NCBI GenBank assembly: GCA_025611195.1
Contig: GCA_025611195.1_4718.2
From: a phage
DNA: 64,000 nucleotides
Reading direction: 5' to 3' (one strand)
Shown here: positions 13,944-43,488 of the stretch, piece by piece
Numbering within the stretch: the first letter of the stretch is position 1
Layout of the letters: each line of letters starts with the position of its first letter
Notes under the pieces: model-generated
Told to the model about the DNA's origin: nothing
Databases searched by the model: none
Seen by the model: the letters and a program-made list of their open reading frames with translations, nothing else
Made by a program: the position numbers and the translations under genes

Positions 13944-13968
13944 TCACGTAAGTAATATAGCCGTGAAA
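13944..13968 (-). promoter_or_regulatory. candidate phage early promoter (minus-strand TTTCACGGCTATATTACTTACGTGA)
   Basis: One of four near-identical 25-nt motifs with invariant TATATTAC, 50-70 nt upstream of the minus-strand ATG at 13895. Confidence 0.5.
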
Positions 13969-14048
13969 GGATTTGTGTTGGTCCGTTTCGATGCCCATCG
14001 TATTTTATGGATTGTCGAATGACGTCATTTTTAAGGGACATCCCCGAC

Positions 14049-14077
14049 CTCCTCCCCACACCTTTCCTGGGGAGGAG
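14049..14077 (+). terminator. 10-bp hairpin (CTCCTCCCCA / TGGGGAGGAG) followed by TTTTAT, in the 5' leader of the helicase gene
   Basis: Perfect inverted repeat with 9-nt loop then T-run on plus strand; no plus-strand gene upstream. Confidence 0.4.
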
Positions 14078-14111
14078 TTTTATCATACTTTCTATTAATT
14101 CGAGCGCGATT

Positions 14112-16193
14112 ATGTTGGATAGAATCAATCGTTTAATGAACCGAATGACGGTTAAAAATCAGAGTAACAATACCGTGCATATCGGGGGTATCGATGCGTG
14201 GCGTCTTTCAGATGACATTCAGCGTATATGGGGTACCTCCCGATTTATGAAACACATGTTTCGTAATTTCTCTTCTAGTGGACTCAGTCTCCACAACTTT
14301 TACCTTCCCGATTTCGTTTATATTCTCGAAACGATCATCGAAGCAAAGAATACCCGTAGTAACAAACGCATGCTGAAACACCTTATCGAGATACTACTGC
14401 AGGAAACATGGTTGCAAAATACCACCATCGAGCAGCCTGCAATCCTCGATAAAGCACGCATGAACAAAATGCTAACGCTCTCTTTGTTCGATTATCAAGA
14501 TGAGTTCATCGACATCTATAACCGTAATGTACCTAAGTATCGACTGAAAGGATACGTGTGTGCGATGGGTGCTGGTGCTGGTAAAACGATCACAGCATTG
14601 GCATTAAGCGCCGCAATGAACGTCGATGTATTTGTGGTCTGCTGCCCTAAGAACACCATGCGTTCAGCATGGCAATCCGATGTAAACAAAGCCATCGTTG
14701 ATCCTGCAACAGAAACCGCGTTCTGGTCGGATACAATGCCACCATCACAGCTGCAGAAAAGCGATAAATACTATTTTTTACATTACGAATCGATGGGCTT
14801 ATTAAACGATGTGATGATCAAGCATAAACGCACAGCGAAGCGCGTTCTTATTGTTGTTGACGAAAGCCATAACTTCAACGACAAGAACAGCCAACGTTCC
14901 CAGCGACTGGTTGATCTTGTACAGACAATGCGTCAAACCATGAATGCGGATGTGCACGTCTTGTTTATGTCGGGTACGCCTGTTAAACAGATGGGTTCTG
15001 AGATGATCCCATGTTTAGGTTGTATCGATCCGATGTTCCAAGGACAGGTGGTCGATAGCTTCAAAGCAATTTACGGTTTAACCAGCAGCCGTGCTAACGA
15101 TATCCTCAGACATCGTCTTGGGTTCATGATGCATGTCGTACCTAAAGAGGCTTACCGTAAAACCCGTCCGGAAGTTCAGGACGTTTACGTGAAGCTCCCT
15201 AACGGTAGCGATTATACCATCTCGAGCATTCGTGACGACATGGCGATATTTGTACGCGATCGGGCGAAGTATTACAAGGATAACTGGGGACATTACCGAA
15301 AGATTTTTGATGATGCCTTGGACTACTATCGTAAGACTATTCGTACCGACGGAGAACGTAAAGAGCTATCTCGATACGAATCGATTGTTGCGCGTTTCCA
15401 GAAAGGTTACGATCCCGTCAGAGACAAAGAAGATGCGATGTTCTGCAACGCGTTTGAAAAACGTTCCATCATGCCAGTTCTTCCTTCTGATTTAAGGGTT
15501 GCTTTCAAAGACGCCAAGAGCGTCATCAAGTACGTTGGGTTGAAAATTCAGGGTGAAGCGTTGGCGCGTGTTCTGGGCGCAGCGCGCATTCGGTGTCATG
15601 TCGACATGGTGGAATACATCGACTTCGAAGAGTACATCAATAACGCCGAAGCCAAAGTGTTGATCTTCACATCGTACGTTCAGGTGGTTGAACGCGTCGA
15701 TAACATGCTTCGTGATGCGGGCTTCTTACCGGAACCCATTTACGGGAAGACCAACAAAAACATCAACCAAATACTTGCCCGTCTACGCGACGATCCTGAC
15801 AGCGGTCCCGCTATCGCAACATTTGATAGCTTAGCTGAAGGGGTTCCGATGCTGATGTGTAATGTGGGTCTTTTCCTGAACAACCCGTGGCGCTCATCCG
15901 ATGAAATCCAAGCCATCAGCCGTCTCGATCGTGTAGGGCAAACGCAACCTGTTCGGATTTATCGTTTCATGTTAGATACAGGAAGCGAAGGTAACGTTTC
16001 TACACGTAGCCACGAAATCATGGAGTTAAGTCGGCAGCTTGTTGAAGAAATCACGGGCGTCAAATACGTGGTGAACAAGCAAGATGATGTTAACTTGCAG
16101 GAAACGTTAGCGATGGAAGGATACGATCAATACGTTACCGTAAACACCTCGGAATACGATATTAAACCACGACCTGCGTTCTTGGAATGGTAA
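14112..16193 (+). CDS. SF2 helicase / SNF2-like ATPase
   Basis: Walker A GAGAGKT, DESH (motif II), SGTP (motif III), C-terminal helicase domain; start set to first ATG after the leader hairpin (ORF track 14007 is probably too long). Confidence 0.65.
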   Translation: MLDRINRLMNRMTVKNQSNNTVHIGGIDAWRLSDDIQRIWGTSRFMKHMFRNFSSSGLSLHNFYLPDFVYILETIIEAKNTRSNKRMLKHLIEILLQETWLQNTTIEQPAILDKARMNKMLTLSLFDYQDEFIDIYNRNVPKYRLKGYVCAMGAGAGKTITALALSAAMNVDVFVVCCPKNTMRSAWQSDVNKAIVDPATETAFWSDTMPPSQLQKSDKYYFLHYESMGLLNDVMIKHKRTAKRVLIVVDESHNFNDKNSQRSQRLVDLVQTMRQTMNADVHVLFMSGTPVKQMGSEMIPCLGCIDPMFQGQVVDSFKAIYGLTSSRANDILRHRLGFMMHVVPKEAYRKTRPEVQDVYVKLPNGSDYTISSIRDDMAIFVRDRAKYYKDNWGHYRKIFDDALDYYRKTIRTDGERKELSRYESIVARFQKGYDPVRDKEDAMFCNAFEKRSIMPVLPSDLRVAFKDAKSVIKYVGLKIQGEALARVLGAARIRCHVDMVEYIDFEEYINNAEAKVLIFTSYVQVVERVDNMLRDAGFLPEPIYGKTNKNINQILARLRDDPDSGPAIATFDSLAEGVPMLMCNVGLFLNNPWRSSDEIQAISRLDRVGQTQPVRIYRFMLDTGSEGNVSTRSHEIMELSRQLVEEITGVKYVVNKQDDVNLQETLAMEGYDQYVTVNTSEYDIKPRPAFLEW

Positions 16194-16198
16194 TTAAG

Positions 16199-19110: not shown

Positions 19111-20685
19111 TTACAATTCAAAATCTTCATCGATAACGCGCTGGGTAAGCACTTTGTCGCTGAAGAACTCCACCTTGCGCTGATGGTATTTACGATGCGC
19201 TTCGATAGAAGTACATACCAGATACCAGAAGGTTGGCGTCATTCCTTCAAACTTCCCTTTCAGCTGACGCAGTCGCCCCAACACCTGAATGTTACCGGTT
19301 CGTGACCCCATCGCTAACGTCATGAACGCCATCACCAAGTCAGGAAGGTCGATACCCGTACCTGCCGATTTCACCGTCGTAACGCTAATATCGTTATCCA
19401 ACAAGACCATGAAATCTTCTTCAGCCGTATAAGGACCGATCTCTAACTCAGGAATACGTTCACTAAGGTAATGCGACAACGACTTACACATATCGACGGT
19501 TGCACAATACACCAGCATCTTCATACCTTCCTGATACTGGTTCATGAAACCTTTGATGATAACCGTATAGATGAAGTTAAAATACGCGAGTTTGAGTTGC
19601 TTGTTCTTCATGATAGACTGTTCGAATATCGTGTGAGAATAAGAACCCCCAAACCCTTTATATCTGACTTTATCTGTACTGCGTAGTCGATACGTCACGG
19701 CATTTACCGCAATGTATTTCTTGTATTCGCCTTTCGCATAACGGGCTTCTTTCGGATACATCAAATACAACATCCGCTCGATGAACGGATCATCGGACAC
19801 CGCCGTTGCTGACAGATAGATGATTTCCGGAATACTAGCGTAACACTTGACCTTAAACAAGAAATGCAATGCTTCATGGCACTCGTCATGAATCAGAAGG
19901 CCTATGCCGGTCTTTTCCCAAAACTCAGCGGGATGGAAGGCATATGGCGCAACGCAGTTATTCTTCTCGTAGTCCGCAATATAACGTTGGAACATGTTCA
20001 AGGAGAACAATGCGATTTTGAAGTCGAGTTCGCCTTGTTCAACCAAGGTTTGAAACTCCAACATACTGTAACGAGGAATGTCAGGATGCGGTGGATCCTC
20101 CTTAGCGTTCCCGCGTATCTCGATAACATCCCCTGGTTCCATCCCGAAGAAGTTCAGTAGTGAGCTTCGCCAACCTGGCATGTATCTCGGCGACAGAATG
20201 ATACCCGTCCGCACACCGCGTCGGAAGGTAATCTCCTGCGACATGGCCGTTTTTCCCGACCCCGTTTGAGCGGTGTTTAGGCTCATTCTGAAGGGGGTAT
20301 CCTTACCCCCGTCCATGTACTCCAACCATTCTTGCTGATCTTCACGCCATGGGAACTTCCATTTCTTTACGAACTCCACTTCTTTACCTGGTGCCGGATC
20401 GTGGTAAACGATTTCCAACCACTCTTTTCGTATCCCTCGGGAAAAGATAAAATCCAAAAACGATTTCAACTGTTCGCGGAGTAAGTATACCTCACTATAA
20501 TCGCTTCTTGCCGCGGCATACGTGTTTATGGTATCGGTAACCATTCTCCGTGTACGAGGGTCGCGCCGTTTCCTCAGATGCAAACAACGGTCTCGAAGGT
20601 AATGGCCGATAAGATGGGCAAATCGAAGTCCGTATCCGCTCAGCCTCATGCCGTGCGAGAAGACATCGATACGAGCTAACTTCAT
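19111..20685 (-). CDS. DExH-box SF2 helicase
   Basis: Motif I AQTGSGKT, motif II LLIHDECHEA, motif III LSATAV, motif V TVKSAGTGIDLPD, motif VI QVLGRLRQ; start overlaps stop of beta-prime-like gene (ATGA). Confidence 0.7.
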   Translation of the reverse strand: MKLARIDVFSHGMRLSGYGLRFAHLIGHYLRDRCLHLRKRRDPRTRRMVTDTINTYAAARSDYSEVYLLREQLKSFLDFIFSRGIRKEWLEIVYHDPAPGKEVEFVKKWKFPWREDQQEWLEYMDGGKDTPFRMSLNTAQTGSGKTAMSQEITFRRGVRTGIILSPRYMPGWRSSLLNFFGMEPGDVIEIRGNAKEDPPHPDIPRYSMLEFQTLVEQGELDFKIALFSLNMFQRYIADYEKNNCVAPYAFHPAEFWEKTGIGLLIHDECHEALHFLFKVKCYASIPEIIYLSATAVSDDPFIERMLYLMYPKEARYAKGEYKKYIAVNAVTYRLRSTDKVRYKGFGGSYSHTIFEQSIMKNKQLKLAYFNFIYTVIIKGFMNQYQEGMKMLVYCATVDMCKSLSHYLSERIPELEIGPYTAEEDFMVLLDNDISVTTVKSAGTGIDLPDLVMAFMTLAMGSRTGNIQVLGRLRQLKGKFEGMTPTFWYLVCTSIEAHRKYHQRKVEFFSDKVLTQRVIDEDFEL

Positions 20686-22688
20686 AACGTGAATACATCC
20701 TCCGGTTTAGGTTCTTTGCGCGGTAAAAGCATGTAGTCGATCGGATGATCCGGCTTCATGGTTGGGATATAACTGTTCGGGTTTTGGAACGCATCCAGTT
20801 GCTCTTGGTGAGCGAACTTCATACTCAAGGAGCGCATGTTCATGTTCTTCTTGAAGGTGCTGAAGTATCGTGTTGTTCCCTGTTTCGGCATGCGATAATC
20901 TTTCGTGTGTGGCGAACGAATCATGCTGGCGTAGAGAATAACATCGAGATGCGAAAGGTTCATTCGCAGACGCTGTGCGCACAAGCGATGCCAATAGTAC
21001 AGCACGTTTGCAACTTCTTCCGGTGTTGCTTCGTCTTCCGAGAGGAACCCGGCACTGAAAGAACCTTTCCCGAATTTGAACTCACGTTCGATTTCTTTTG
21101 CGTATTCCATCATGTTTTTGTGGATTAACGGCATCTGGAATAACGTACGTGAATTGTCCCAATGTTTCAAGTCGAAAATCACAATCCCGTCAGACGTCAC
21201 TTCCCAGCTATGGCGTTTAAGATAACGGATAAACGCTTTACTCGGTACAACAGGACGTCCGCAGAAATCGAAATTGACTTTGAGCTTACGATAGCTTTCA
21301 TCTTTCCTGTCGTAAATCTCCATATCGCAAAGCGTCATGTTAAACAGACGCTGTGGTATCAGCGAACTGATTTCTTCCGCTTCGGCTACATCGTACAACA
21401 TGTTCGCAAGACCTAACTTCATCTTAATCAGCACGTGTTTACCTTTCAGCTCACGTGCGAGTTTGATGTCGTTCATGTTCTGGCTGTAACGAAGGATATG
21501 TTGATATTCCGGTGGGATTGGTGCTGTAGAGACCGTTGACGAACCGTCGTGGTGTTTGGTAGAAAGAATGTTCTGCGTTACCTGTTGCGAGCAGGTACGC
21601 GCTGCGCCATCGCCGACATTATCGGTTAATGCGAAGTTATGACTTAATTCACCATAACACGTTGTGCATACCCCAGCAGGATCGGGATGATGACAATAGT
21701 TAACGGAGCGCATACGCACTGTGGTGCCGATCAATTCTTTCATATGTGGTTGTATCGCTACCAACGAACCGTCATCACGAATAATGAATCGGCCGTGGAA
21801 GCCACGCAGGTCGGTCTCATCACGGATTGGCATCGGGATGGTCTCTCTACTACCACAATCACCAGGATGTAGTCGTTGCACAACCGCTGTCGCTATCTGA
21901 AGTTCACGACCGAAATATTCAGACTTTTTAATCTGCTCTTTGTTGAACAGCAACGATTTCGCCGCAGAACGACTTTCTTTCAAGCTGTCGGGAAGAGAGA
22001 TCAAACCTGACGCGTACGACCGCATTACTGGATCACGGAATATCTCGGAGTTAATATCGGTCAAGAATCCACGCATCCCAATACACTGCAGCACCTGCCC
22101 AATCGAAACGTGTTCGGTTCTTACCGCACGTGCAATAGGGTTTGCATGTAATGTTTTATCGGTGCTCAGTACCTTTGTCAGTTTCTTGTATGCGCTTTCG
22201 ATACCTTCGCGGGTGGGTTCCGCTTCAGCGATGATTTTCTTAACTTCGGGGTGTACGGTAATCTGATAAAAATCATCCGCACAAATAGTTGTTACGTATT
22301 CCTCCAACGCATACGTAAAGAAGTTATACACGTTGTTAAACATATCGAACAGTGCTTTCCAGAGAACCTCACGATTCTCTTGTGGGTAAGCATACATGCA
22401 TTGACGATACGCTGCGCTTTGCAACGCTACCGATGAACCCGCTGTAAACTTACGTTTATCAACCAGGTTCTCTTTTGTCAATGGTGTCTCAGGATACATG
22501 CGATGTACAGACCAGTGCATGTAACTAAAGAAAATGCGTCGCGCACGTAATTCATGAACGCCATCGTCCATCTCGATATATACACGGTCATTAGGCTGTG
22601 CCCACTCGAATACCTCATCAACCGGCCAGTGCATAAGCTCGCGTGCCCTCACACGACGTTTCGTGGTGGTCGTCTGTGTTGTAGTCAT
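20682..22688 (-). CDS. RNA polymerase beta-prime subunit, C-terminal portion (split multisubunit RNAP)
   Basis: QVLQCIGMRGF aligns with beta-prime AGMRGLMA region; VRMRSVNYCHHPDPAGVCTTCYG...TQNILSTKHHDG aligns with E. coli [21 protein letters not shown]...TQLTMRTFHIGG. Confidence 0.65.
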   Translation of the reverse strand: MTTTQTTTTKRRVRARELMHWPVDEVFEWAQPNDRVYIEMDDGVHELRARRIFFSYMHWSVHRMYPETPLTKENLVDKRKFTAGSSVALQSAAYRQCMYAYPQENREVLWKALFDMFNNVYNFFTYALEEYVTTICADDFYQITVHPEVKKIIAEAEPTREGIESAYKKLTKVLSTDKTLHANPIARAVRTEHVSIGQVLQCIGMRGFLTDINSEIFRDPVMRSYASGLISLPDSLKESRSAAKSLLFNKEQIKKSEYFGRELQIATAVVQRLHPGDCGSRETIPMPIRDETDLRGFHGRFIIRDDGSLVAIQPHMKELIGTTVRMRSVNYCHHPDPAGVCTTCYGELSHNFALTDNVGDGAARTCSQQVTQNILSTKHHDGSSTVSTAPIPPEYQHILRYSQNMNDIKLARELKGKHVLIKMKLGLANMLYDVAEAEEISSLIPQRLFNMTLCDMEIYDRKDESYRKLKVNFDFCGRPVVPSKAFIRYLKRHSWEVTSDGIVIFDLKHWDNSRTLFQMPLIHKNMMEYAKEIEREFKFGKGSFSAGFLSEDEATPEEVANVLYYWHRLCAQRLRMNLSHLDVILYASMIRSPHTKDYRMPKQGTTRYFSTFKKNMNMRSLSMKFAHQEQLDAFQNPNSYIPTMKPDHPIDYMLLPRKEPKPEDVFTL

Positions 22689-22833
22689 TATTGCTTTCCG
22701 ATTTAAATGGTTTTATCATACGGTTTACCAAATCCGTTGGACTTTACTATCGTTGTGATAGCATCGGGAATCCCTTCCCTTAGGTTATGTAGGTGTTAAT
22801 ATATCTCCACTGCTGTCGTAAAGGTCAGCAGCA

Positions 22834-24216: not shown

Positions 24217-24294
24217 ACCAGGGATCCTCTTTAAGTCTTCACATTCTAGTGTTAAGCAGTTAAAATAAACCGTCCCTTTAATCAGCATAAACAT

Positions 24295-32920: not shown

Positions 32921-32993
32921 TTTCAGCCTCGTTACGTAGTGTGAATCAATTTCTGGTTCAGATGATAGTTAATATTAGTTAAAAATTACAGCC

Positions 32994-33827
32994 TCAGCGG
33001 AACATGTCCAACAGAAAACGTTTTGCGAAGGGGTCGCGTAACTGGTTGACGCCAAAGCGTGTACGGTCTTCCGTTGTTAACGGATTCCACTGACTCTGTT
33101 TCGCAAGATCTAACAGCATCCTTTTTATTTTCACCGGCCCGCTGTTAAACTGTACGGCTTGGTCGCCGAACGTTCCCAATGTCATCTTTGTAAATGGGAG
33201 GTTCGCAACCTCTGGACGATCTCCACCAGTAAGTTTGGTCGACCACTGATGTTTTCGTTTCAAAGTTCCGGTATGACTCTCTACCAAAATAAGTTCACCA
33301 AAACCGGTTCTTGCCAACAAGTCAGAAACATAGTGCGTAGTGATATACGACGTTTTGGTTATCGTGGGTAATTTACAATCCATCGATTCGATATTGGGGA
33401 GTCGATCTACAGACGCCATCAACCCACGATAAAGTGTGGCGAGTCCTTTTTGTTTTTCGGTGTGTGGCTCCTTGTGTATAGCGTGCGGATAAACACGCTT
33501 TATTGACGCATAGGTTGGCGCATATATCCGCAAACGAATATGGGGAACGAGTTCATTCACCAACTGCCTTAGCTGCAGCAACTCGTTTTGAAAATCCCCC
33601 GTTATCATCGATAATGGTAATTTATGCTGTTCGACGTCTTCAAAGCTTTCAACAAAATTGCGCGCTAAAGTACGCAGGTTGAACAACCAATCCATCGGCG
33701 TTTCTGGCTGTTGCTGCACGGCTGATAATGTTGCTGACGTCCCCACCGATAAAGGATAATCACCTAACGTGCGGGCGTACATATCGCTCATACCCCACAA
33801 CTCCTTCTTATCATGGCAACGTATCAA
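32994..33827 (-). CDS. hypothetical protein (277 aa)
   Basis: ORF track. Confidence 0.5.
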   Translation of the reverse strand: MIRCHDKKELWGMSDMYARTLGDYPLSVGTSATLSAVQQQPETPMDWLFNLRTLARNFVESFEDVEQHKLPLSMITGDFQNELLQLRQLVNELVPHIRLRIYAPTYASIKRVYPHAIHKEPHTEKQKGLATLYRGLMASVDRLPNIESMDCKLPTITKTSYITTHYVSDLLARTGFGELILVESHTGTLKRKHQWSTKLTGGDRPEVANLPFTKMTLGTFGDQAVQFNSGPVKIKRMLLDLAKQSQWNPLTTEDRTRFGVNQLRDPFAKRFLLDMFR

Positions 33828-34953
33828 GCCAAGCAGAAACCTTTAAGGCATCAACGTTCGGGTATTTATTACGGATGCGTTCGACCAGCAAACGCTTAAC
33901 GTTGTCCTTTGTCAAGTCCCCGCCTTTCTCGATAACGTTATTGACAAAACTGTTCTTTAATAACGACTGGTTGTTCTTGGCGTCCGTTTTAATTGTCCAG
34001 ATAAAACCTGGATACAAAGAAGGGATAGAACGAAACGTTTTCGCTGCGTCGTCTTCCTTATCACAACGTATTCGGATGTGATCGCCCTTCTTCAATGAAG
34101 CCAATTCCCGTTCCAATACACGAATGATTTCATCTCCAACAAGACCGTGCAGTTTTATCGTCTTGTAGACATCTGCTTTCTTGTTCTCAACAAATTCCCA
34201 TTGGTCGTTAAACGATTCTGTTAACGTATAACGGAGGTACCCCTTTGGACCTTCTTCGCCATGCGACAAGCGACCGAACGAACCGCCAACCATGATACGT
34301 CCTTTCTGGGATTGTAAGTGGATATGCCCACTCACGACCCACCCTTGGGTCTTCTCTACCATTGCGTTATACGCATCGCTGCTATGAACACATGTCGCTT
34401 TTAACGCTTCTGGTGGAAGCTGATATTCAAACGCGCCGTGCATCAGAATGAAGTCCGGCGATCCCTTCTCATCAATAAGTCGGTTCACAGCCGACAACGT
34501 CACATCCGGATCGTGGCTGTAGTTATCTGGAAGATAGAGCACTTTTAAACCAAAGTCTTCATCAACCATGCAGAGATCATCGTAATAACGAACTTTCGCT
34601 CCTATCTCCATGACCTCGTTCTGTTCAACGAACCACTGGCTTTGCTTCTGGTCATGTAAATTGGTACCTTCAAGAAAGATCAACGTAATATCGTGTTTTC
34701 TCGCATACCGTAACAACCAGGTACCCCAGGCACGAACAGCAACCACGTCACTCGTTACAAATGTCGTAATACGATCGAAGACATCACCACTGAATGTAAT
34801 CACGTCAAGCAGCGCAGGATCTTCTTTTGTGATATAATAACGTAGCTGGCTAATCAGATTCACTGTCGGTGTTTGACGATGGATAAAGTGAATATCCGAC
34901 AAGTTGATTCCTCGTAATACCCCAGGCGTTTTATTTCGACTGAAGTCTCGCAT
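33811..34953 (-). CDS. Mre11/SbcD-like metallophosphoesterase nuclease
   Basis: Calcineurin-like motifs: FSGDVFD, EGTNLHD, ILMHGAFE, SGHIH. Confidence 0.55.
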   Translation of the reverse strand: MRDFSRNKTPGVLRGINLSDIHFIHRQTPTVNLISQLRYYITKEDPALLDVITFSGDVFDRITTFVTSDVVAVRAWGTWLLRYARKHDITLIFLEGTNLHDQKQSQWFVEQNEVMEIGAKVRYYDDLCMVDEDFGLKVLYLPDNYSHDPDVTLSAVNRLIDEKGSPDFILMHGAFEYQLPPEALKATCVHSSDAYNAMVEKTQGWVVSGHIHLQSQKGRIMVGGSFGRLSHGEEGPKGYLRYTLTESFNDQWEFVENKKADVYKTIKLHGLVGDEIIRVLERELASLKKGDHIRIRCDKEDDAAKTFRSIPSLYPGFIWTIKTDAKNNQSLLKNSFVNNVIEKGGDLTKDNVKRLLVERIRNKYPNVDALKVSAWLDTLP

Positions 34954-35735
34954 CAGAATTCCTCTAAGTTACTGCTGCTAATAGCCCCCGTCGTAGACGA
35001 CACGTTTTTACTGCTCGCCGACGCTGTTGTTGAAGAAGTTCTGGCTAGATTCAATCCGTTTAATAACCCACGCTCTTTTACCGTACGACGCGAACCATCA
35101 CGAACGTCGTAAAGGGGTACGTTATAATGGTCAAAAATCCGAAGCCATTGCACGTAATCAGCAACAACATGGTCTTTGCTTTCATTCGGAGCAAAGCGAT
35201 CAAGCTGATGGTCAACGTAAGCTTTAGCGCTTTCAGGATTGAAGTTATACTGTCGACGTGCTTTATCCACCATCGCGAGGAAACACGTGTTGGGGTCACG
35301 ATTGATGTATGAACGCGTCCGGATAAAGATAGCCGGTACCGTAAACAGAACCTTGTTGTTATTCCCGTCAGTGACAATATTAACGGCACGATGTGGTTGA
35401 CCTGCTATCTTACACCAATCGTGAACAATGGTACTGTTACTCAGCATCTCCGCGTATTCAGGATCCTGAGAAAACATACCCGCGAACGGATACAAGAAAT
35501 GTTTAACAAACAGCGATTCGGGCAGGATGTTGGGACGCGTCATCTCCTGTAAACCTTTTCGTAGAAGCTCGCTGTTGTCTACCAGCTCCTGCCACATGTC
35601 CGGTCGTGTTTTCGGGATGGACGGATCCTGAGCGCGACGAATGCGTTCTTCCTCATTTACAACCACTACCCCAGCCGGATACCCCAATAAATCCGTTCCT
35701 TCGCTAACGTTGCTGTTAGTTTGGCGCGCCTTCAT
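34953..35735 (-). CDS. hypothetical protein (260 aa)
   Basis: ORF track. Confidence 0.5.
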   Translation of the reverse strand: MKARQTNSNVSEGTDLLGYPAGVVVVNEEERIRRAQDPSIPKTRPDMWQELVDNSELLRKGLQEMTRPNILPESLFVKHFLYPFAGMFSQDPEYAEMLSNSTIVHDWCKIAGQPHRAVNIVTDGNNNKVLFTVPAIFIRTRSYINRDPNTCFLAMVDKARRQYNFNPESAKAYVDHQLDRFAPNESKDHVVADYVQWLRIFDHYNVPLYDVRDGSRRTVKERGLLNGLNLARTSSTTASASSKNVSSTTGAISSSNLEEF

Positions 35736-36123
35736 TTACTTCCTCCTGCCACTTGACAAAATTACCACGCTCGGATCGCAGAACACCACCCAGATCGTAC
35801 GATATACCTTTCTCTGTGACAATCCCACCAATCTGGAGATCGACACGTTCCGTCGTCGGATCGATATACTTGACACGGACTTTCAATTCCACACGATCGT
35901 AATAACGCATTAAATAATCATACAACATCCGGTATGTCGCATCTTCCAATTTGGGTGCGCTATACTGCGATGTTGCAATGAGGTACGGTAGTGAAACGAT
36001 GGAACCTTGATAGCAATACGACTGGGAATAATTCGATATTGCGAAATTGGTCATTAACCCATCCAGCTTTTTTCCCGACGCGGTTAAAAAGCTCGACAGC
36101 CCAGGTAACGGATTCGATGCCAT
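35716..36123 (-). CDS. hypothetical protein (135 aa)
   Basis: ORF track. Confidence 0.45.
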   Translation of the reverse strand: MASNPLPGLSSFLTASGKKLDGLMTNFAISNYSQSYCYQGSIVSLPYLIATSQYSAPKLEDATYRMLYDYLMRYYDRVELKVRVKYIDPTTERVDLQIGGIVTEKGISYDLGGVLRSERGNFVKWQEEVNEGAPN

Positions 36124-36136
36124 GAGGAACTCCTCT

Positions 36137-36586
36137 TTAAGCGTAATTCATTCCAACCAATCTATCGTAGTTAGGCATATGCCCTAACTTCAGTTCGACA
36201 GGCACGGATACATTGGTACGCGGTGCGTAAAATGTTCGCGTATGCATATCGATATACCCACAGTCCAAATAAACAATATCAGACAACTCTGCCGGATGTT
36301 TAGGTGTGGGAATCTTTAGTCGATTATAACACTCAAGCTGCCACCAGGCATGAAAAAAGTTATTGTAGGCGTACGATTTACTGTTGGCAACTTTAAGTCC
36401 GTAGACAACCCATAACGTCGCCATGAAGTTGGTTGCGTTAATTCGCATCGGTTGTTCATTATTGAGCATGTGCGTGTAGGTAAACAGCGGTGTGTTACCA
36501 TCGCCGAAACGTCCGACCAGGGTATTGTTCGTACGTTCGACCTCAAAGGAAAAATGCTGGCTGCTATTGCCATCAAAATGGATCAT
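36137..36586 (-). CDS. hypothetical protein (149 aa)
   Basis: ORF track. Confidence 0.45.
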   Translation of the reverse strand: MIHFDGNSSQHFSFEVERTNNTLVGRFGDGNTPLFTYTHMLNNEQPMRINATNFMATLWVVYGLKVANSKSYAYNNFFHAWWQLECYNRLKIPTPKHPAELSDIVYLDCGYIDMHTRTFYAPRTNVSVPVELKLGHMPNYDRLVGMNYA

Positions 36587-36662
36587 TCTGTTCTCCTCAA
36601 GCTTTTCATTTCATAGAGTGGTGGAAATTCGTAGAAAGTTACAAAAATAAAAAGAATGGGTA

Positions 36663-36692
36663 GTCCCTCCCCACCCGAAGGTAGGGAGGGAC
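36663..36692 (-). terminator. GTCCCTCCC / GGGAGGGAC hairpin
   Basis: 9-bp stem, 12-nt loop, downstream of the stop at 36704. Confidence 0.55.
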
Positions 36693-36703
36693 CACAGATG
36701 TAT

Positions 36704-37168
36704 TTAAACCAATGCCGCGATAACGTCGTTAACATTACGACCGCGCAACTCTGCCGCCAAACGAATAACTTCATCCAGGGAACGGTTTGTACGAATCTTA
36801 GCTACTTTCCAATTTTCAGGATACTGTTCGAAGTTAAGTAACCAAGTCATTACCTTTGCTTGTTCCACACCGTTGAGTTTGATTGTCGTGCGCGGATTGG
36901 CTTTGAACCACTTCTTGCTCAGCTGTGCCATACGGCGAACAGGGTAAGCGTAAGCGCGAGTCCAATCTTTGGACAGATTGTCGAGTAACTCACGGTAGCT
37001 GCTATCGTAGTCTTTGTTGATACGACGTAATAACCAGTTGGCGGTCATCTGATAGAGTTTATCATCTTCACGTAACCGCATCCCTGCTACTGCTAAATAA
37101 ACGATAAGACCTGCACCCATGATGAGAGACAGGATAAACAGAACTTGGGTTTCTTGTGCTAAAGTCAT
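36704..37168 (-). CDS. putative membrane protein with one N-terminal transmembrane helix
   Basis: N-terminal VLFILSLIMGAGLIVYLAVAG hydrophobic segment; TATATTAC promoter motif upstream. Confidence 0.5.
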   Translation of the reverse strand: MTLAQETQVLFILSLIMGAGLIVYLAVAGMRLREDDKLYQMTANWLLRRINKDYDSSYRELLDNLSKDWTRAYAYPVRRMAQLSKKWFKANPRTTIKLNGVEQAKVMTWLLNFEQYPENWKVAKIRTNRSLDEVIRLAAELRGRNVNDVIAALV

Positions 37169-37254
37169 TTTTACTATCCTCGGATTTCGTTAGGATTTGA
37201 TTTCCAATATAAGGACAATGTGATATGCCTTATACAGTCGATTGATGTTGTACA

Positions 37255-37279
37255 TCACTTAAGTAATATAGCCGTGAAA
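37255..37279 (-). promoter_or_regulatory. candidate phage early promoter (minus-strand TTTCACGGCTATATTACTTAAGTGA)
   Basis: Near-identical to the motif at 13944..13968; 90-110 nt upstream of the minus ATG at 37168. Confidence 0.5.
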
Positions 37280-37288
37280 AATGTTGGA

Positions 37289-38104
37289 TTAACGTGTTCT
37301 CCTATCACGATGCGTATACGACTGAAGACCGATGTCCATATGCGGTAACGTCAGCGTCTGCCAGATCTGTCGTGCGTAGCGATCGAGTGTATGGTCGTCA
37401 GTAACACAATCGACTGGTTCGATGAGGTGAGTCGTATACTGGCTTTTCTCGGAGAAAGGTTCGATGTTAGCGGTGTCCCCTAATCCGCTTTTCACCGTGA
37501 AGACGAGACGGGTAATTATCATCGCCTTATGCTGCTGTTCATTATAGCGAAGGCTACGATATACAGCATAGCTCCCCCCTTTTAGGCTTCGGGTATAACG
37601 AAGGTCGGAGGTCGTCTCGGAAATCTGATACAACATCCAATCCAACGTATCACGCCAGTACGCATCATCCACATCAGGAACCGTGATGCCATAACGCGTA
37701 GGCAGCAGTTCTAAAAGCAGTTTATAAAGTCCACGACGCAGACCATGCTCTTCTGTTTCAGACAAACCGTTTCCAACGTAACGTGAGATACGCGTACGTA
37801 AATACGTACGGATGAACATATTTGTCATCAGTGATTTCGCGCTACTACTGTTATCCTCAAAGCGATCAACACTGAAACTCGTTTCAATCAGCTGCCCATT
37901 AAAGTACAATGCGGCAACATACATCGCATTACTGCTATCTCGTTCAATGTTTAAACGCCCGCAGATATTGGCTGCGTCGTTCATGGTAAATTCTAACTTA
38001 TCGTGTTCGATACGGTAAATAATATCCTCTTGGGTTGCTAAGCTCGCAATGCGACGATAACCCGGAGAAGTGCGTTTTACACCCATGATTGTCCTCGTTT
38101 TCAA
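37289..38104 (-). CDS. hypothetical protein (271 aa)
   Basis: ORF track. Confidence 0.5.
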   Translation of the reverse strand: MKTRTIMGVKRTSPGYRRIASLATQEDIIYRIEHDKLEFTMNDAANICGRLNIERDSSNAMYVAALYFNGQLIETSFSVDRFEDNSSSAKSLMTNMFIRTYLRTRISRYVGNGLSETEEHGLRRGLYKLLLELLPTRYGITVPDVDDAYWRDTLDWMLYQISETTSDLRYTRSLKGGSYAVYRSLRYNEQQHKAMIITRLVFTVKSGLGDTANIEPFSEKSQYTTHLIEPVDCVTDDHTLDRYARQIWQTLTLPHMDIGLQSYTHRDRRTR

Positions 38105-38126
38105 TTTAAGATTGCGTGCGGCATAG

Positions 38127-38153
38127 ACCCTCCCCGCCTTATGCAGGGAGGGT
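38127..38153 (-). terminator. ACCCTCCC / GGGAGGGT hairpin
   Basis: 8-bp stem, 11-nt loop, downstream of the stop at 38168. Confidence 0.55.
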
Positions 38154-38167
38154 AGCCATTAAATGGA

Positions 38168-38806
38168 TTAACCTAATTTACCACCGGCGATATTGGTGAA
38201 ATCTTCGCCATCAGGAACTTGCAGTAGAATACGTGCCATGTCCCAGTTGGTTAATGTGATTGCTTTATCATCGATACTCAGTTCTGGTAGGTCGAGTTCA
38301 TGATCATCAAACTCGTAGGAAATACTCCACGTTTCATCTGTTTTAGGATCTGTCATCAATACACCGTCTGTCACACGCATGTAGTCCGGATGCAGTTCAT
38401 TACTGAACGTACTGAACGGATCGGTGTAACATTCAGCATACCCTTCGATCTGCTGACGCTGTGCCTTCGTACGTAATTCAGGGCATGCCATAATCAGTTG
38501 TCGAGATATGCCGTTTGCAGCACGGAAGTCTTCCACGGTGTTACATGGCATAACCACATCGTCATGGAAGATGTTCTCCGATTGTCTCAACAGCGTCTTA
38601 CGGAGTTCAGCATAGTTTATCTGATTGAACGCATCGAACGTTGCTAACGATTCAGCGTAAAAATGCTTTACGTGTTCGCTTGCGCCGCCGAGGCTATTCA
38701 TCAACTTGTGACCATACTCCATGAAGCTTTTATCGAGACCGGAGGACATTTCTCCGAACCTCAGTGCACGATAACTGTCTCGTCCACCTGTAAATATTTG
38801 CGCCAT
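38168..38806 (-). CDS. hypothetical protein (212 aa)
   Basis: ORF track. Confidence 0.5.
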   Translation of the reverse strand: MAQIFTGGRDSYRALRFGEMSSGLDKSFMEYGHKLMNSLGGASEHVKHFYAESLATFDAFNQINYAELRKTLLRQSENIFHDDVVMPCNTVEDFRAANGISRQLIMACPELRTKAQRQQIEGYAECYTDPFSTFSNELHPDYMRVTDGVLMTDPKTDETWSISYEFDDHELDLPELSIDDKAITLTNWDMARILLQVPDGEDFTNIAGGKLG

Positions 38807-38821
38807 TACAGGCGTCCTCCT

Positions 38822-39061
38822 TTAGCAATGGTTGTTAGTTGCTTCTATTTCATCAAGATACGGTTCTACGTCATCGCCCTCCACGAATTCGTTGAACCAA
38901 CAGTCAATGGTAGAAATAACCGGTGACTGGTGTTCACATTTCTTAGATACCTTAAAAGGTACGTTATTATCCATCATACCGAGTTCGGGTCGAAAACGCC
39001 CGAAATGTTTCGCAGTCCAAATGTCTGGGACGATATGGTTGTTCATCGTGGTGTTCAGCAT
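38822..39061 (-). CDS. small ORF immediately 3' of the intron region; possible downstream exon of the beta-prime-like gene
   Basis: ATG at 39061 with GAGGT RBS; MNNHIVP and LGMMDNNVPF weakly resemble the beta-prime segment following the catalytic loop (MAVHVP, LMMSTNNILSP). Confidence 0.35.
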   Translation of the reverse strand: MLNTTMNNHIVPDIWTAKHFGRFRPELGMMDNNVPFKVSKKCEHQSPVISTIDCWFNEFVEGDDVEPYLDEIEATNNHC

Positions 39062-39064
39062 GAG

Positions 39065-39740
39065 TCGCTACCTCATACCCGCAGCTTTACCTGCAGCTTC
39101 CGGTGTTACCGGAATGTCCAGAATACATCTTATCCATATTCCAAATGGAACGTAGGACTTCCGCGCTGGATCTCGCTTGAGACCACGTATTCGTTGAACG
39201 TTCTCCTGAACGGAGCTTCGCTGCTGATCGAACATTGTCGTGTACGGTAGGCATCCCCGAAGGGATTGTCATTGAAGCCGCGTACATCCGCTACCTTGTT
39301 TCTACCTTATCGGTTCCTCTTACGAGGCGTAGCGGCCTTAGCCCTTCCCAGCAATTCACGGAATCCAAGCTCTTCCTTTCGGAAGGCAGGGCCTATGATT
39401 AAGCATCCCCGTCGCTGTTATCGACTATATCTTCATCCTCGTTGCGAGGAGTCTCCCGTTTGGGTCTGTGTTTAACAGAGCCTACTCTACTCAACATCGC
39501 GTCTTTCGATAGTCTGTGAGCACACATCTTAACGAACATTCGTGGATTCCTAAACAGGTGAACGTTCTTGTTGAGATGCTTCGCTGCGGATTATTCCCGT
39601 CCTACCTCTTTTACCGTACCCAGTTCATTACGCTGGCCCTCATCTATGTCACCATGATGAGTTGGTGTGTAGTCCGATTACAGAAACTTCCCGTCAATTA
39701 GAGAGTTTTAACTACGTTCCTGTTACCAGAAACCAGATCC
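39065..39740 (-). ncRNA. group I intron-like element B (approximate boundaries)
   Basis: Minus strand carries Q-like AATCCGCAGCGAAG (39592-39579), R-like GCTCACAGACTATCG (39521-39507) and S-like GAAGATATAGTCG (39433-39423); no long ORF. Confidence 0.5.
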
Positions 39741-39814
39741 CGACGGTATCAATAAATCAACGTAAGTTATTGATTTAATTGAAAAACTGAAATCTGCATT
39801 ATCTAAATCTTCAG

Positions 39815-40185
39815 TATGGTTCGCTACTCCATACCCGTACCTCATGTACTGCTTACGTCTTTCACGTAAGGATAGACTATATCTTTCACCCTCAGCATTA
39901 TCTGGTCGGGGCTCCCATTTCGGCGGTCAGATGACCGGTGGTTTCCCACGCCGCTTGGCCCTAACGCCCGTAAGCGATAGTCGTTGAGCACATCTCCGTT
40001 CTGGAGACTTCGCTGCGGATTCCCCAATCCTTGCCGCTTTTACCGTACCTGAATGATTAGTTCAGCCCCACGCTCTGTTCCCAGGCATGGTTGGTGGACG
40101 AGGCTCTAAGTAGGTTCCCGCATTAGAGAGTTCCTCGTAACAACATTTCTGCGTTACTGGGCCTAACGACCCTTTCAAGATCATC
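39815..40185 (-). ncRNA. group I intron-like element A (approximate boundaries)
   Basis: Minus strand carries P/Q-like GGTAAAAGCGGCAAGG...AATCCGCAGCGAAG (40044-40008), R-like GCTCAACGACTATCG (39987-39975), S-like AAAGATATAGTC (39885-39875) and a P9-like hairpin CTTACG-TGAAAGA-CGTAAG. Confidence 0.55.
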
Positions 40186-41411
40186 ACGCTTAACCCGATG
40201 GTGTTATCCTGCGGATCGCGTTTAACCTTGGTGATTTCAAGACATTGGTTACTGCTTCGGTCAAGTGATGGGTTTCGAACAAAGCCGCACACAATCCCAT
40301 CGAACGGTGTATCAGCAATAAGCTCATCATGCAGCTCGCTCATCATCGGATGATAATTACGGACATGTTCCGCAACGAACGCACGTGCTGCTCTCGGTGA
40401 ATAACCGCGATGGAATAACTTGGATTGGATATGTTCTTTATTGGTTAAAGTAAATGGTGCGTATGGGAAATGCAGATGATAATAACGATGGTTCGCTGTT
40501 ATCGAACTGATTACGGTACGCGTGGTGAATGGATGTAATGTACCTAATATGTTTTTACGCGTGATACCTTTCTTCTTACCGATGAACTCATCGAAAATCG
40601 CCGCGTGGTATTGCAGCAGCTTCAATTGCACTTTCGCCATCCAGTTTTCTTTCTTTCTGGCGCTCAAAGGTGTTGTTGGATGATAGATACTATTCAGTGT
40701 ACCAATAGCATCGATCGCACCTTCCATTTTGCTATCTGCATAACGGCCGGTCGGTGTATTTTCGATAACGAACATCATGGCCGCAGGAAAGCTGATATAC
40801 TGACTGAAGAACTTATCACGATGGATACGGATGAATTCTCGTAGCGTGTCAACTTTCTCTGTGTTCTTCGGTCCACGTAATGTGGGTCCTTTATACAAGA
40901 TCTCCATGATGCGATCGAAGTTCTGTATAAAGCTATTTACACCACGCCGTATCCCGAATACATCAAATTGCTGCTCCAGATAGTTCTTGAGTTCAATGGG
41001 TCGTTTTACATTTGGACGGTAACTGGCATCAATGAGCCACGTCATCGTTTCGAAGCTTTTGATATTCAACTCGCTTGCCAGCACGAGATGGACCAACGGG
41101 TTAATGAACGCATCGATTCCTTCAGGGACACGCGCCCAGACCGTCGAACGAATCTCCTGTTCTGCTGGGTAGGTTACAACCGTTTTACAGTTTGGACACA
41201 CCGTGCCGAGCAACTCACCGCGATTGTAGAAACCACAACCACATTGTGGCGTGATATCCAACGTATCGCTGGAGTAAACACGGGTGATAAAACTGTTTAA
41301 TTTCTTCTTCTCTTCGACGACTTTTGTATCGTAATCGTTCAACAAAATCGGCGTAAAGGGAAGTTCTGCGAGCTGTCTATCGAAACTCACGATATCGAGC
41401 ATGATGGCCAT
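40062..41411 (-). CDS. RNA polymerase beta-prime subunit, N-terminal portion; 3' end of this ORF probably reads into intron A
   Basis: Zn-binding CGCGFYNRGELLGTVCPNC; GKKKGITRKNILGTLHPFTTRTVIS aligns with beta-prime [24 protein letters not shown]; ORF ends before any DFDGD catalytic loop. Confidence 0.6.
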   Translation of the reverse strand: MAIMLDIVSFDRQLAELPFTPILLNDYDTKVVEEKKKLNSFITRVYSSDTLDITPQCGCGFYNRGELLGTVCPNCKTVVTYPAEQEIRSTVWARVPEGIDAFINPLVHLVLASELNIKSFETMTWLIDASYRPNVKRPIELKNYLEQQFDVFGIRRGVNSFIQNFDRIMEILYKGPTLRGPKNTEKVDTLREFIRIHRDKFFSQYISFPAAMMFVIENTPTGRYADSKMEGAIDAIGTLNSIYHPTTPLSARKKENWMAKVQLKLLQYHAAIFDEFIGKKKGITRKNILGTLHPFTTRTVISSITANHRYYHLHFPYAPFTLTNKEHIQSKLFHRGYSPRAARAFVAEHVRNYHPMMSELHDELIADTPFDGIVCGFVRNPSLDRSSNQCLEITKVKRDPQDNTIGLSVMILKGSLGPVTQKCCYEELSNAGTYLEPRPPTMPGNRAWG

Positions 41412-41453
41412 GGGACATCTCCTACAAATGAAAAAGAACGTTAGGACGTATAA

Positions 41454-41477
41454 GGGAGGGAGGTTGCCCTCCCTCCC
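41454..41477 (-). terminator. GGGAGGGAGG-TTGC-CCTCCCTCCC hairpin
   Basis: 10-bp perfect GC-rich stem with 4-nt loop downstream of the stop at 41504. Confidence 0.6.
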
Positions 41478-41503
41478 GTCAGATTACATCGAACGTTCTT
41501 CCA

Positions 41504-43399
41504 TTAGAACAGGTTGAATGCTCCACCCATGTTGTTACCACCAACATTCGGACGATCGCTACGTGCATAGATGTTGCCGGAGATGTTACCCAGACCACGA
41601 GCACGTGCTGCTGTGTTACCACGAACGGCGGTACCTGCCAGATGCTGGATGTTCTCAGGACGGATGGTGAAGCCAGCTTCGGCAGCCGCTTCAATCAATG
41701 CCGCAAGCGCATTCGGTTCGAAATCGTAACGCATTGCCCAACCGGTTTGTTCCCAGCTACCAGACAGAACGCGATCGATGATTTCGTGACGAGCAACAAC
41801 ACGCTGAGACATCGACATATCGGTACGGTCGAAGCTGTCTTCCCAAGCTTCTACGGTATCCGGGTTAGTGATGTTCATCATGTACAGATCGTCCATATCA
41901 CGAATATCGTGACGGTTACCGTCCTGGTGGTTGTAGTGACCCAGCGGGATACGGTTACCAGTAGCGTAGACTAACGGTTGGCCGTATTGATATTTCTTGC
42001 TGAAGCAACCCAGGGTGGTATCATCGAATGCACGATAGAGTGCTTTATAGCCTTCGGAGATTTCTTGAACTTTACCGTCAACGTTGCCCGTAAAGATCTT
42101 CTCAGCTGCAGGGATCATACGCAGCAACCAGCTATATTCGCCTTCTTCCGGTACGTCGATAGAAATCAGCAGAGACGGATACAGTACCTGTTGCAGGAAC
42201 TTGTAAATCTGCTCGTTGGTTTGAGTAGACAGATCCAGCGGTGCAGTAACTTCCGGATCCAGTACCATCGCCAGAGCACCCGGGTTATGCGGACCAATAC
42301 CACGAGCAGCGTTGCTGATTAAAGACTGCGCCCACGCCATACCGCTGTTCAGCGTAGCGATGGTACCAATCAGACCCAGCACAAACGTGTTCGGAGTGAA
42401 CGCATCCAGCTCCAGCGGGTAGGCGCTGGTCATCACGTAACGCGGTTGGTACTGTACAGTCGGCGGTACCGGATAACCGTTAACCAGAACAGGACCTTGG
42501 TTGAAGGTCGGGTTCTGCGGGCTGTAGGTCAGGTCAATGTAACCAGTGGTTGCGACCAGGCGCTGTTGACTATCGTAATCGCTCATCGCTTGACGGATAC
42601 GGTTAGAGATAGTTACAGTGATGTCAGAACGCACTGGGTTACCGACGATATCGCTGTCCTGCATACCGCTGGTGTTGTACTGAACGCTGCTGATCGGCTG
42701 ATCGCTTGCCATCATGCCCAGGTTGAACTGCGGCAGACCCAGTTTATCGCCGAGACGGATTTCGATCGCGGTTTGGATTGCGTTATCTGCAGCAGACAGC
42801 AGGGTGGTTGCCAGATGCGCAGATTCAGCAGTGATTTCATTGGTCACCACAGCCAGACCGGCGATACGAACAGTACCGTTAGCCTTACCGCCAATAGCCG
42901 CATACATTGCCGCCATGACTTCGTTGATGAACGTGCCGTTCAGGTTATCAACCCAGGTACGCGGTACCAGAATGTTACCATGCGGACCTTGTTCTTCACG
43001 ACGCGGCAGCGGAGCCAAACCGGCAACCAGCGGAAGCACATAACCGAAGAAGTGGTTATGGTCACCAACTTTTGCACCGCTCATAACAACCAGGGTCGGA
43101 TACGGTACACTGTACTGGTTAGGATCGACGGTCACCATGATGAAGTCGTCTTTGAACCCTTTATCTTCCAGTTCTTTCTCCATCAGACGACGGAGATTCA
43201 GTACCTGCTCGGAGCCAGTATTACGGCTAATACGACGGCTCAGTGTACGGTTGATCGTACGCATCGTATGAGTTACTTTAGGCTGGCCAGCAAAATCTGC
43301 AGCGGTTTCCAGCGCCTCATCAGCACGTTGTGCGGTGCGGGTTTCAGCTGCACGAATTTCTACATTATCGTTACCGTTATTACGTACGTCTAAGCCCAT
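41504..43399 (-). CDS. candidate chimallin (ChmA) phage-nucleus shell protein; alternative: major virion structural protein
   Basis: 631 aa with low-complexity N- and C-terminal tails; AAGAGGAA RBS; TATATTAC early-promoter motif upstream; strong terminator downstream; PhuZ encoded 8 kb away. Identity not verifiable by eye. Confidence 0.4.
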   Translation of the reverse strand: MGLDVRNNGNDNVEIRAAETRTAQRADEALETAADFAGQPKVTHTMRTINRTLSRRISRNTGSEQVLNLRRLMEKELEDKGFKDDFIMVTVDPNQYSVPYPTLVVMSGAKVGDHNHFFGYVLPLVAGLAPLPRREEQGPHGNILVPRTWVDNLNGTFINEVMAAMYAAIGGKANGTVRIAGLAVVTNEITAESAHLATTLLSAADNAIQTAIEIRLGDKLGLPQFNLGMMASDQPISSVQYNTSGMQDSDIVGNPVRSDITVTISNRIRQAMSDYDSQQRLVATTGYIDLTYSPQNPTFNQGPVLVNGYPVPPTVQYQPRYVMTSAYPLELDAFTPNTFVLGLIGTIATLNSGMAWAQSLISNAARGIGPHNPGALAMVLDPEVTAPLDLSTQTNEQIYKFLQQVLYPSLLISIDVPEEGEYSWLLRMIPAAEKIFTGNVDGKVQEISEGYKALYRAFDDTTLGCFSKKYQYGQPLVYATGNRIPLGHYNHQDGNRHDIRDMDDLYMMNITNPDTVEAWEDSFDRTDMSMSQRVVARHEIIDRVLSGSWEQTGWAMRYDFEPNALAALIEAAAEAGFTIRPENIQHLAGTAVRGNTAARARGLGNISGNIYARSDRPNVGGNNMGGAFNLF

Positions 43400-43463
43400 T
43401 TGGGATTCCTCTTTTCTTAAACTTTATTAAATGACGTCATTGAATCAGCTTCTACTCGCTCAT

Positions 43464-43488
43464 TCACCTAGGTAATATAACCCTGAAA
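43464..43488 (-). promoter_or_regulatory. candidate phage early promoter (minus-strand TTTCAGGGTTATATTACCTAGGTGA)
   Basis: TATATTAC-core motif 65-90 nt upstream of the minus ATG at 43399. Confidence 0.5.

Follow-up and report, generated by a model that had tools for sequence, protein, structure and literature searches.

All jumbo phages with RNA polymerase genes of their own carry an AT-rich motif, centred near -10, before their early operons, and wherever transcripts have been profiled this motif has proved to be the early-promoter consensus, hence read by the virion polymerase (PMC7598289). Differential RNA-seq (PMC8244752) and ONT-cappable-seq (PMC11512511) place the motif ~10 bp before the early transcription starts of phiKZ and 201phi2-1 and reveal additional blocks of conservation around -20 and -30; 28-32 such early promoters are known in phiKZ (Wicke 2021, Putzeys 2024). 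Predicted promoters have been tabulated for phiKZ (TATATTAC), 201phi2-1, OBP, EL and N1M2, the 201phi2-1 consensus being TTAWTAVAA_HYWTTTRARR_BTATATTACDWHDGTG (PMC7058600 Table 2). Here, we describe a set of matching sites in a 64,000-nucleotide stretch of phage DNA (contig GCA_025611195.1_4718.2 of GenBank assembly GCA_025611195.1; this whole stretch is called the window below), which are very probably early promoters of a chimallivirus resembling phage Goslar, read by its virion RNA polymerase.

The window corresponds to positions 129.2-193.5 kb of Escherichia phage vB_EcoM_Goslar, a nucleus-forming jumbo phage of the Chimalliviridae, at 94.5% identity and with four large differences; a 3.6-kb piece containing the gene for chimallin, the phage-nucleus shell protein, is 95.7% identical to Goslar and has no other match in the phage collection. 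The complete annotated Goslar genome (237,307 bp) served as genome-wide control, chimallin loci were compared between the window and eight other chimalliviruses, and the related contigs used in promoter comparisons include UViG_3300011560_000001 and UViG_3300045988. Four promoter-like sites had been proposed in an earlier reading of the window sequence (the original prediction), and all four lie at the coordinates given there, on the minus strand and between genes. A fifth site, P5, was overlooked in that reading.

13944..13980, minus strand: putative early promoter P1, in a divergent intergenic region, with core TATATTAC at 13952..13959; its 16-nt site (13959..13944) reads TATATTACTTACGTGA
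31977..32013, minus strand: putative early promoter P2, core at 31985..31992, with a Goslar orthologue at 160791; its 16-nt site (31992..31977) reads TATATTACCTCTATGA
37255..37291, minus strand: putative early promoter P3, core at 37263..37270; its 16-nt site (37270..37255) reads TATATTACTTAAGTGA
43464..43500, minus strand: putative early promoter P4, upstream of the chimallin gene, core at 43472..43479, with the A-tract upstream element TATTGAAAAAAATTTCAGGG; its 16-nt site (43479..43464) reads TATATTACCTAGGTGA
58120..58156, minus strand: putative fifth promoter P5, in a divergent intergenic region, with variant core TACATTAC at 58128..58135; the site 58135..58120 reads TACATTACCTTCCTGA

A statistical comparison shows that the signal lies in the extended motif rather than in the octamer. 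The sequence TATATTAC occurs exactly four times in 128 kb (both strands of the window), at P1-P4 and always on the minus strand, which is not significant on its own (4 observed vs 2.2 expected). By contrast, the 18-mer TTCACGGYTATATTACYT with up to three mismatches gives four matches vs 0.21 expected, a number that none of 100 shuffles reached, and the 16-nt pattern TAYATTACYTNNNTGA gives five exact matches in the window vs 0.01 expected, all five of them intergenic and on the minus strand. Scores of a position weight matrix (PWM) for the core-proximal region are bimodal, with six window sites at 16.7 or above and the next best site in 128 kb at 8.8. All window sites are non-coding, in a window whose non-coding fraction is 7-11% by crude gene calling, and point in the same direction as their downstream genes; in the Goslar annotation, the motif is present at three of the six window junctions where a leftward gene block adjoins a rightward gene.

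TT(T)CA(C/G)G(G/C)(C/T) precedes each of these four 16-nt sites, and from P1 to P4 the motif ends 49, 88, 87 and 65 nt before the ATG, respectively; in P4, the first T of the core lies 80 nt before the chimallin ATG, and in P3 the -30 element TTAATCC shares bases with the stop codon of the gene upstream. Two details of the original prediction hold only in part. The GTGA end is present in P1, P3 and P4, while P2 ends in ATGA because of a 38-nt insertion described below, and the AAGAGG-type ribosome-binding site claimed for all four genes is missing at P3, where it is GAGGA.

The same picture is obtained across the Goslar genome, in which all ten copies of TATATTAC are on the minus strand. Of these, eight lie between genes and within the extended context; the two others are coding and lack it. 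A PWM built from the eight extended sites retrieved four more, with core TACATTAC. Allowing up to one mismatch, TAYATTACYTNNNTGA detects 13 sites in Goslar, all 13 on the minus strand, 12 of them in annotated intergenic DNA and one within a 62-aa hypothetical open reading frame. A motif lying mostly inside coding regions would have spoken against promoters, and no extended site falls in a real coding region of the Goslar genome. The motif is also more stable than its surroundings: the P1 block is identical between the window and Goslar next to a rewritten 5' untranslated region (UTR) just downstream, the P5 block is conserved beside a substitution cluster, and P3 differs across four related genomes at degenerate motif positions only.

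Scanning IMG/VR with the extended pattern revealed two further Goslar-like contigs, with 10 and 5 matching sites, as well as single matches in many contigs of 215-237 kb. We also observed another metagenomic jumbo-phage group with a near-identical single site, TTTAAGATACA...TTTCA(C/G)GTCTATATTACTTG.GTGATTAAGACAAT (IMG/VR loci L015, L021, L028, L032, L043 and L049, mostly 214-229 kb, L043 being a 23-kb contig), which is probably one orthologous early promoter of another chimallivirus clade.

Comparison with the published promoters supports the early-promoter assignment. The original prediction had taken TATATTAC to match the phiKZ early-promoter consensus, and the phiKZ entry in PMC7058600 Table 2 bears this out. 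Aligned in one register with the 201phi2-1, N1M2 and OBP consensus sequences, P1-P4 agree with 25-32 of the 33-35 positions that these specify. In random 75-nt windows, used as the null, the maxima were 23-27; P1-P4 are at or above the null maximum throughout and above it in 11 of 12 comparisons, the exception being P2 vs 201phi2-1. P5 and the candidate sixth site at 22791 (see below) are not above the null for any of these three consensus sequences.

The chimallin locus offers a positional parallel. Upstream of phiKZ gene 54 (chimallin), the sequence ATGAAAAAAATTTGAGATTTATATTACTAAATTGAAT has its core 80 nt before the ATG, and the corresponding window sequence ATTGAAAAAAATTTCAGGGTTATATTACCTAGGTGAAT has it at the same distance, with a shared A-tract; the two chimallin proteins are only ~24% identical despite the conserved motif, A-tract and distance. 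TATATTAC is also found upstream of chimallin in RAY, Eowyn, RSL2 and pEa_SNUABM_37, cores are present in five other genera, and the PhiPA3 and Noxifer chimallin loci have TATATCAC. PHIKZ054 has a primary transcription start with the early motif (Wicke et al., PMC8244752). In Goslar, chmA is transcribed by 5 min, from inside the early infection vesicle, and all five virion polymerase subunits, gp78, gp196, gp205, gp207 and gp210, are present in the virions (bioRxiv 10.64898/2026.04.21.720040).

The consensus that we derive for the Goslar clade is TTAATCCAAnATTTTTCACGGCTATATTACYTnnnTGA, plus an A-tract variant; no early-promoter consensus for this clade was found in the searchable literature. 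P5 has the exact consensus in its downstream half and lacks the upstream TTTCACG element. A divergent copy near 22790, proposed in the original prediction, is a weak but plausible sixth site, with a PWM score of 16.7 vs 8.8 for the next best, in a register other than the one proposed.

22776..22812, minus strand: candidate sixth, degenerate promoter, core TACATAAC at 22784..22791, upstream of a 668-aa RNA polymerase subunit gene

The proposed register, ATATATTAAC, is disfavoured by both the PWM and the similarity to P5, and judging from these the register is probably TACATAAC at 22791..22784. Taken alone, the 22791 site is not significant, since it has two mismatches to the 16-nt pattern and 13 such matches are seen vs 5.8 expected. 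P5 and the 22791 site agree at 25 of 37 positions and have TGGAGAT-N8-ACCTACATWACCT in common; in Goslar, ACCTACATWACCT is found in two places only, the counterparts of these two sites. The two may form a separate promoter class. As to the cores, related genomes exchange TACATTAC and TATATTAC at orthologous sites, including sites with TTTCACG, from which we argue that both cores form one class.

Taken together, the motif is real, non-random, intergenic and oriented with the genes, it matches published consensus sequences, and its position before chimallin is conserved. From these observations we infer the exact start points, early timing in the window phage and recognition by the virion polymerase. 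The virion polymerase would bind TA(T/C)ATTAC as an extended -10-like element, with TTTCA(C/G)G acting as a ~-20 element that lies two bases upstream of this core, and an A/T-rich block near -30 occurring in two forms, TTAATCCAA or TATTGAAAAAAA. Transcription would begin 6-8 nt beyond the core, on or beside the conserved (G)TGA, an estimate made because the motif is published as centred near -10, with a T-rich block upstream of -19. Predicted starts lie near 13945, 31978, 37256, 43465 and 58121, with predicted 5' UTRs of ~49-89 nt. The resulting leftward transcripts would carry an HD-domain operon from P1, a pair of 528-aa genes from P2, a single small membrane-protein gene from P3, chimallin and then the beta' gene of the non-virion RNA polymerase (nvRNAP) from P4, and a gp225-like gene from P5.

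Several points weigh against this assignment. No start has been mapped for the window phage, nor for Goslar at nucleotide resolution, and the sole published statement on Goslar is an ambiguous figure legend, 91 nt upstream of chmA (PMC10541120). Goslar has 13 sites vs 28-32 in phiKZ although, at 5 min, 175 of its 249 genes are detected, which implies either long read-through or further promoters that have gone unrecognised; strong hairpins right after chimallin and after the P3 gene would limit read-through. The TATATT of the core matches the host -10 hexamer at five of six positions. Finally, none of the virion polymerase genes falls within the window, and their presence in this phage is presumed from its 94.5% identity to Goslar.

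Recognition by the other phage polymerase has to be considered alongside. The sites could be middle or late promoters of the nvRNAP, or be used by both phage polymerases, with P5 and the 22791 site, which lack TTTCACG, perhaps constituting a separate temporal class. In phiKZ, the chimallin gene is transcribed from two starts, one early and one middle (PMC8244752), the nvRNAP genes of 201phi2-1 do not all have early promoters, and the resemblance of P5 to the 22791 site, including their private ACCTACATWACCT, would fit such a class. However, phiKZ middle promoters are marked by an A-run followed by TACT at ~-22, and late ones by TATG overlapping the start (PMC7598289, PMC8244752), whereas the window sites fit the early consensus; the start regions of P1, P3, P4 and P5 are ACGTGA, AAGTGA, AGGTGA and TCCTGA, and TATG is present only in P2, where the insertion created it. 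Moreover, the exchange of TACATTAC and TATATTAC at orthologues bearing TTTCACG means that the core variant alone defines no class, and we regard nvRNAP promoters as improbable. Host transcription is a still weaker contender: TATATT could be a sigma-70 -10 element for E. coli RNA polymerase, since it matches TATAAT at five of six positions, and the two upstream forms offer TTAATC 16 nt upstream (three of six to TTGACA) or TTGAAA 13 nt upstream (five of six). In line with the original prediction, which had found no fitting sigma-70 pair, no site was called on the minus strand in a sigma-70 scan, and a -35 partner at a spacing of 16-18 nt is missing. The AT-rich hexamer ~10 bp before the start is indeed shared with E. 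coli sigma-70 promoters, but the conserved flanks, namely AC after TATATT, the adjacent TTTCASG and TGA at the start, are foreign to sigma-70, and the same motif is found in phages of Pseudomonas, Erwinia, Ralstonia and Klebsiella. Development of the phiKZ type is independent of host RNA polymerase (PMC7598289), the injected DNA being shut in a vesicle together with the virion polymerase, and sigma-70-like matches total 30 vs 34.2 expected and 23 vs 34.4 expected, all of which makes host promoters highly improbable. The lower of these totals (standard deviation of the expectation, 5.1) belongs to window positions 32000..51900, a depletion that fits a genome unread by host RNA polymerase.

The motif might instead have no role in transcription. 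As a repeated element, it could bind a regulatory or DNA-organising protein, serve as a recombination cassette or be left over from a small mobile element. Recurring insertions at a fixed motif position are in favour of this, as are composites of terminator and motif that recall the recombination cassettes of T4-type phages. Set against it are the strict co-orientation with genes, 39-219 nt before start codons, the three sites at which a leftward block adjoins a rightward gene, and the identity of the sequence with motifs whose starts have been mapped experimentally in phiKZ and 201phi2-1; a role in recombination would come on top of a promoter role, not supplant it, and a purely non-transcriptional repeat is accordingly very improbable. 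Chance resemblance between AT-rich intergenic stretches, to which the unremarkable count of the bare octamer would point, is refuted by the excess of both extended patterns, by the single-strand placement of all 13 Goslar sites and by conservation of the sites in four related genomes, and has next to no probability. A virion polymerase can also read its promoters in another way, and in the N4 type it recognises a short DNA stem-loop. A hairpin of this kind, formed by TCAC...GTGA around the core, was considered and rejected, as the 13 Goslar sites show no compensatory changes and the arms are 13-15 nt apart.

Early promoters read by the virion polymerase, our preferred assignment, would serve the following genes and their associated hairpins.

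13209..13895, minus strand: HD-domain phosphohydrolase gene, first after P1 (Pfam HD, E = 5.7e-8), equivalent to Goslar gp159
30303..31889, minus strand: 528-aa gene, first after P2, equivalent to Goslar gp175; no Pfam family
36704..37168, minus strand: 154-aa gene after P3, with one N-terminal hydrophobic segment
36660..36695, minus strand: terminator-like hairpin closing the P3 unit, 16-bp stem and T run
41504..43399, minus strand: chimallin gene after P4 (Pfam Chimallin_Phikzvirus, E = 4.8e-28)
41454..41477, minus strand: hairpin GGGAGGGAGG-GCAA-CCTCCCTCCC, between chimallin and the nvRNAP beta' gene
40062..41411, minus strand: first exon of the nvRNAP beta' gene, equivalent to Goslar gp247, after chimallin in the P4 unit
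57545..58069, minus strand: 174-aa gene after P5, equivalent to Goslar gp225
20682..22688, minus strand: 668-aa RNA polymerase subunit gene after the candidate sixth site, equivalent to Goslar gp165

The HD-domain protein and the chimallin candidate of the original prediction are thus both recognised by Pfam, and the window chimallin is 96.5% identical to Goslar gp246; no record of an identical protein was found. The strong hairpin right after the 154-aa gene suggests that P3 probably heads a single-gene transcription unit. The hairpin at 41454..41477 has a perfect 10-bp stem and no adjoining T run; it is probably a partial terminator, and may determine how much chimallin mRNA is made relative to read-through into the polymerase gene, for which Armbruster et al. 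(PMC10541120) named the Goslar counterpart gp247 nvRNAP beta'(1). Three polymerase-like genes are found in the window, the first following chimallin within the P4 unit, another downstream of P2 and the third downstream of the candidate sixth site. Their Goslar counterparts, gp165, gp171 and gp247, are annotated as RNA polymerase subunits, and none is among the five virion subunits of Goslar. A 60-aa open reading frame that overlaps P2 (31880..32062, minus strand) was rejected as spurious, being unannotated in Goslar and liable to a frame shift by the 38-nt indel.

Another recurring structure is a G/C-rich hairpin, often CCCTCCC...GGGAGGG, followed directly by T(T/C)TATGCYG. In the window, hairpins with this nonamer lie on the minus strand at 12113..12139, 38119..38152, 24283..24323 and 47031..47070, with further nonamers from 4153 and 51085, and on the plus strand nonamers start at 16225 and 27350. 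Goslar has 17 intergenic copies, and no other signal between genes is as enriched in the genome. The composite is probably the terminator type of this phage, and the TATG within it could be related to the late-promoter motif of phiKZ.

The insertion that alters the end of P2 belongs to a pattern seen at several promoters.

31945..31988, minus strand: 38-nt insertion relative to Goslar, in P2 (the span includes a 6-nt TTACCT repeat, owing to which the exact borders are ambiguous)

This insertion separates the promoter core from the original start region, follows directly on TATATTACCT and holds the perfect palindrome CCTCTATGA-ACAAAG-TCATAGAGG. In blastn searches it is shared only with the IMG/VR contig UViG_3300011560_000001; we rejected a dispersed mobile-element copy, as blastn matches only the window and this one contig. 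Two more insertions in that contig, of 43 nt at the orthologue of Goslar 15067 and of 53 nt at that of Goslar 86705, are absent from Goslar and UViG_3300045988, and Goslar 226695 shows the same insertion architecture. Insertions of ~38-53 nt are found at four promoters, at one fixed point after TAYATTACCT, and at three of the four, including P2, presence or absence varies within a set of ~95%-identical genomes. In each, a start-region repeat is followed by its perfect inverted copy of 9-10 bp, by a CGAY-rich spacer and finally by the original start region; insertion loci in relatives are L025 ~3046, L022 ~4372, L014 ~1300 and Goslar 226695, and the signature TCA...AGGCGAY followed by TTACCT is confined to promoters. 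Within an RNA that begins at the predicted start, this inverted copy forms base pairs with the second repeat, giving an added stem-loop near the 5' end.

We tentatively suggest that early promoters of Goslar-like phages are targets of a previously undescribed small sequence module, a proposal that is rather doubtful at present. The insertions may have arisen by template switching at a busy promoter, from a tiny promoter-targeting element, or as a selected leader hairpin. Were they a selected or mobile module and not a mutational by-product, they would represent a new way to retune virion-polymerase promoters or early mRNA leaders. The arrangement recalls the PeSL cassettes of T4-type phages (PMC2839356, PMC4122927), repeated composites of a terminator stem-loop and an early promoter at which close relatives differ by indels. 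At Goslar promoters 43266, 49732 and 86705, a conserved hairpin with T(T/C)TATGCYG lies 35-45 nt upstream, and the indels between close relatives fall in the promoter cassettes. PeSLs, however, have host sigma-70 early promoters and are linked to whole-gene swaps, whereas the Goslar promoters are not of the sigma-70 type and the Goslar-type indels measure 38-53 nt, lie inside the promoter and consist of direct-inverted-direct repeats.

Elsewhere in the window, positions 214..896 have no megablast match to Goslar, with 683 nt in place of 359 nt (Goslar 129368..129726); from the alignment, this looks like a gene replacement within a block of small leftward genes. The Goslar HNH endonuclease gene gp186 (Goslar 168217..169281) is missing from the window. 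In the nvRNAP beta' gene region, two tandem group I intron-like elements (39415..39781 and 39853..40189, minus strand) reach 46.9 and 29.6 bits, each under the Rfam gathering score of 50, and a weaker intron-like match lies at 39159..39363; a 368-nt segment absent from Goslar (39803..40170) corresponds to the second element. Rfam at the gathering threshold and ARAGORN found nothing in the window.

If the sites are early promoters, they place early transcription start points in a jumbo phage that forms a nucleus and infects E. coli, including the promoter for chimallin and the first nvRNAP gene. The clade consensus could drive early expression of genes inserted into the phage, a use to which the phiKZ consensus early promoter has already been put. 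The promoters also constitute a defined set of templates for studying promoter recognition by the virion polymerase, the mechanism of which is undescribed in the literature cited here.

Compared with known systems, the element is of a known kind, conceptually repeating phiKZ and 201phi2-1, and the recurring promoter insertions are its sole unexpected feature. With phiKZ, it shares the identical core TATATTAC, a T-rich element upstream of ~-19, an A-tract further upstream and a location before early operons on the main coding strand; the Goslar type differs in having two further conserved elements, TTTCA(C/G)G and, at the predicted start, (G)TGA, in tolerating the TACATTAC core, in having fewer sites (13 per 237 kb) and in its host, E. 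coli. A 2014 study by Ceyssens is reportedly among the sources for the early promoters of the phiKZ virion RNA polymerase, with 28-32 sites. The -30, -20, -10 and start elements of 201phi2-1 have the same spacing as in the window sites (P3 matches at 32 of 35 positions, P1, P2 and P4 at 27-30), but its TTTRARR corresponds to TTTCACG in the window, with C at two purine positions, and its TTAWTAVAA is replaced by an A-tract in the second Goslar promoter form. N1M2 and OBP (TTTCARRYAKATATTATYWAAGTG) resemble the window sites in TTTCARR, the AT-rich core and AAGTG, in the same register (25-30 of 33-35), and in the predicted EL promoter WTTTYAAACCTACATTATY the part AAACCTACATTAT resembles AAACCTACATTAC of P5; the N1M2, OBP and EL strings are predicted promoters only, and the window core ends in TTAC, not in TTAT as theirs do. 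A further parallel is the Bacillus phage AR9, in which an injected multisubunit polymerase likewise reads an AT-rich element near -10, although the consensus is a different one, the genome contains uracil and no nucleus is formed, so that the likeness is one of function only.

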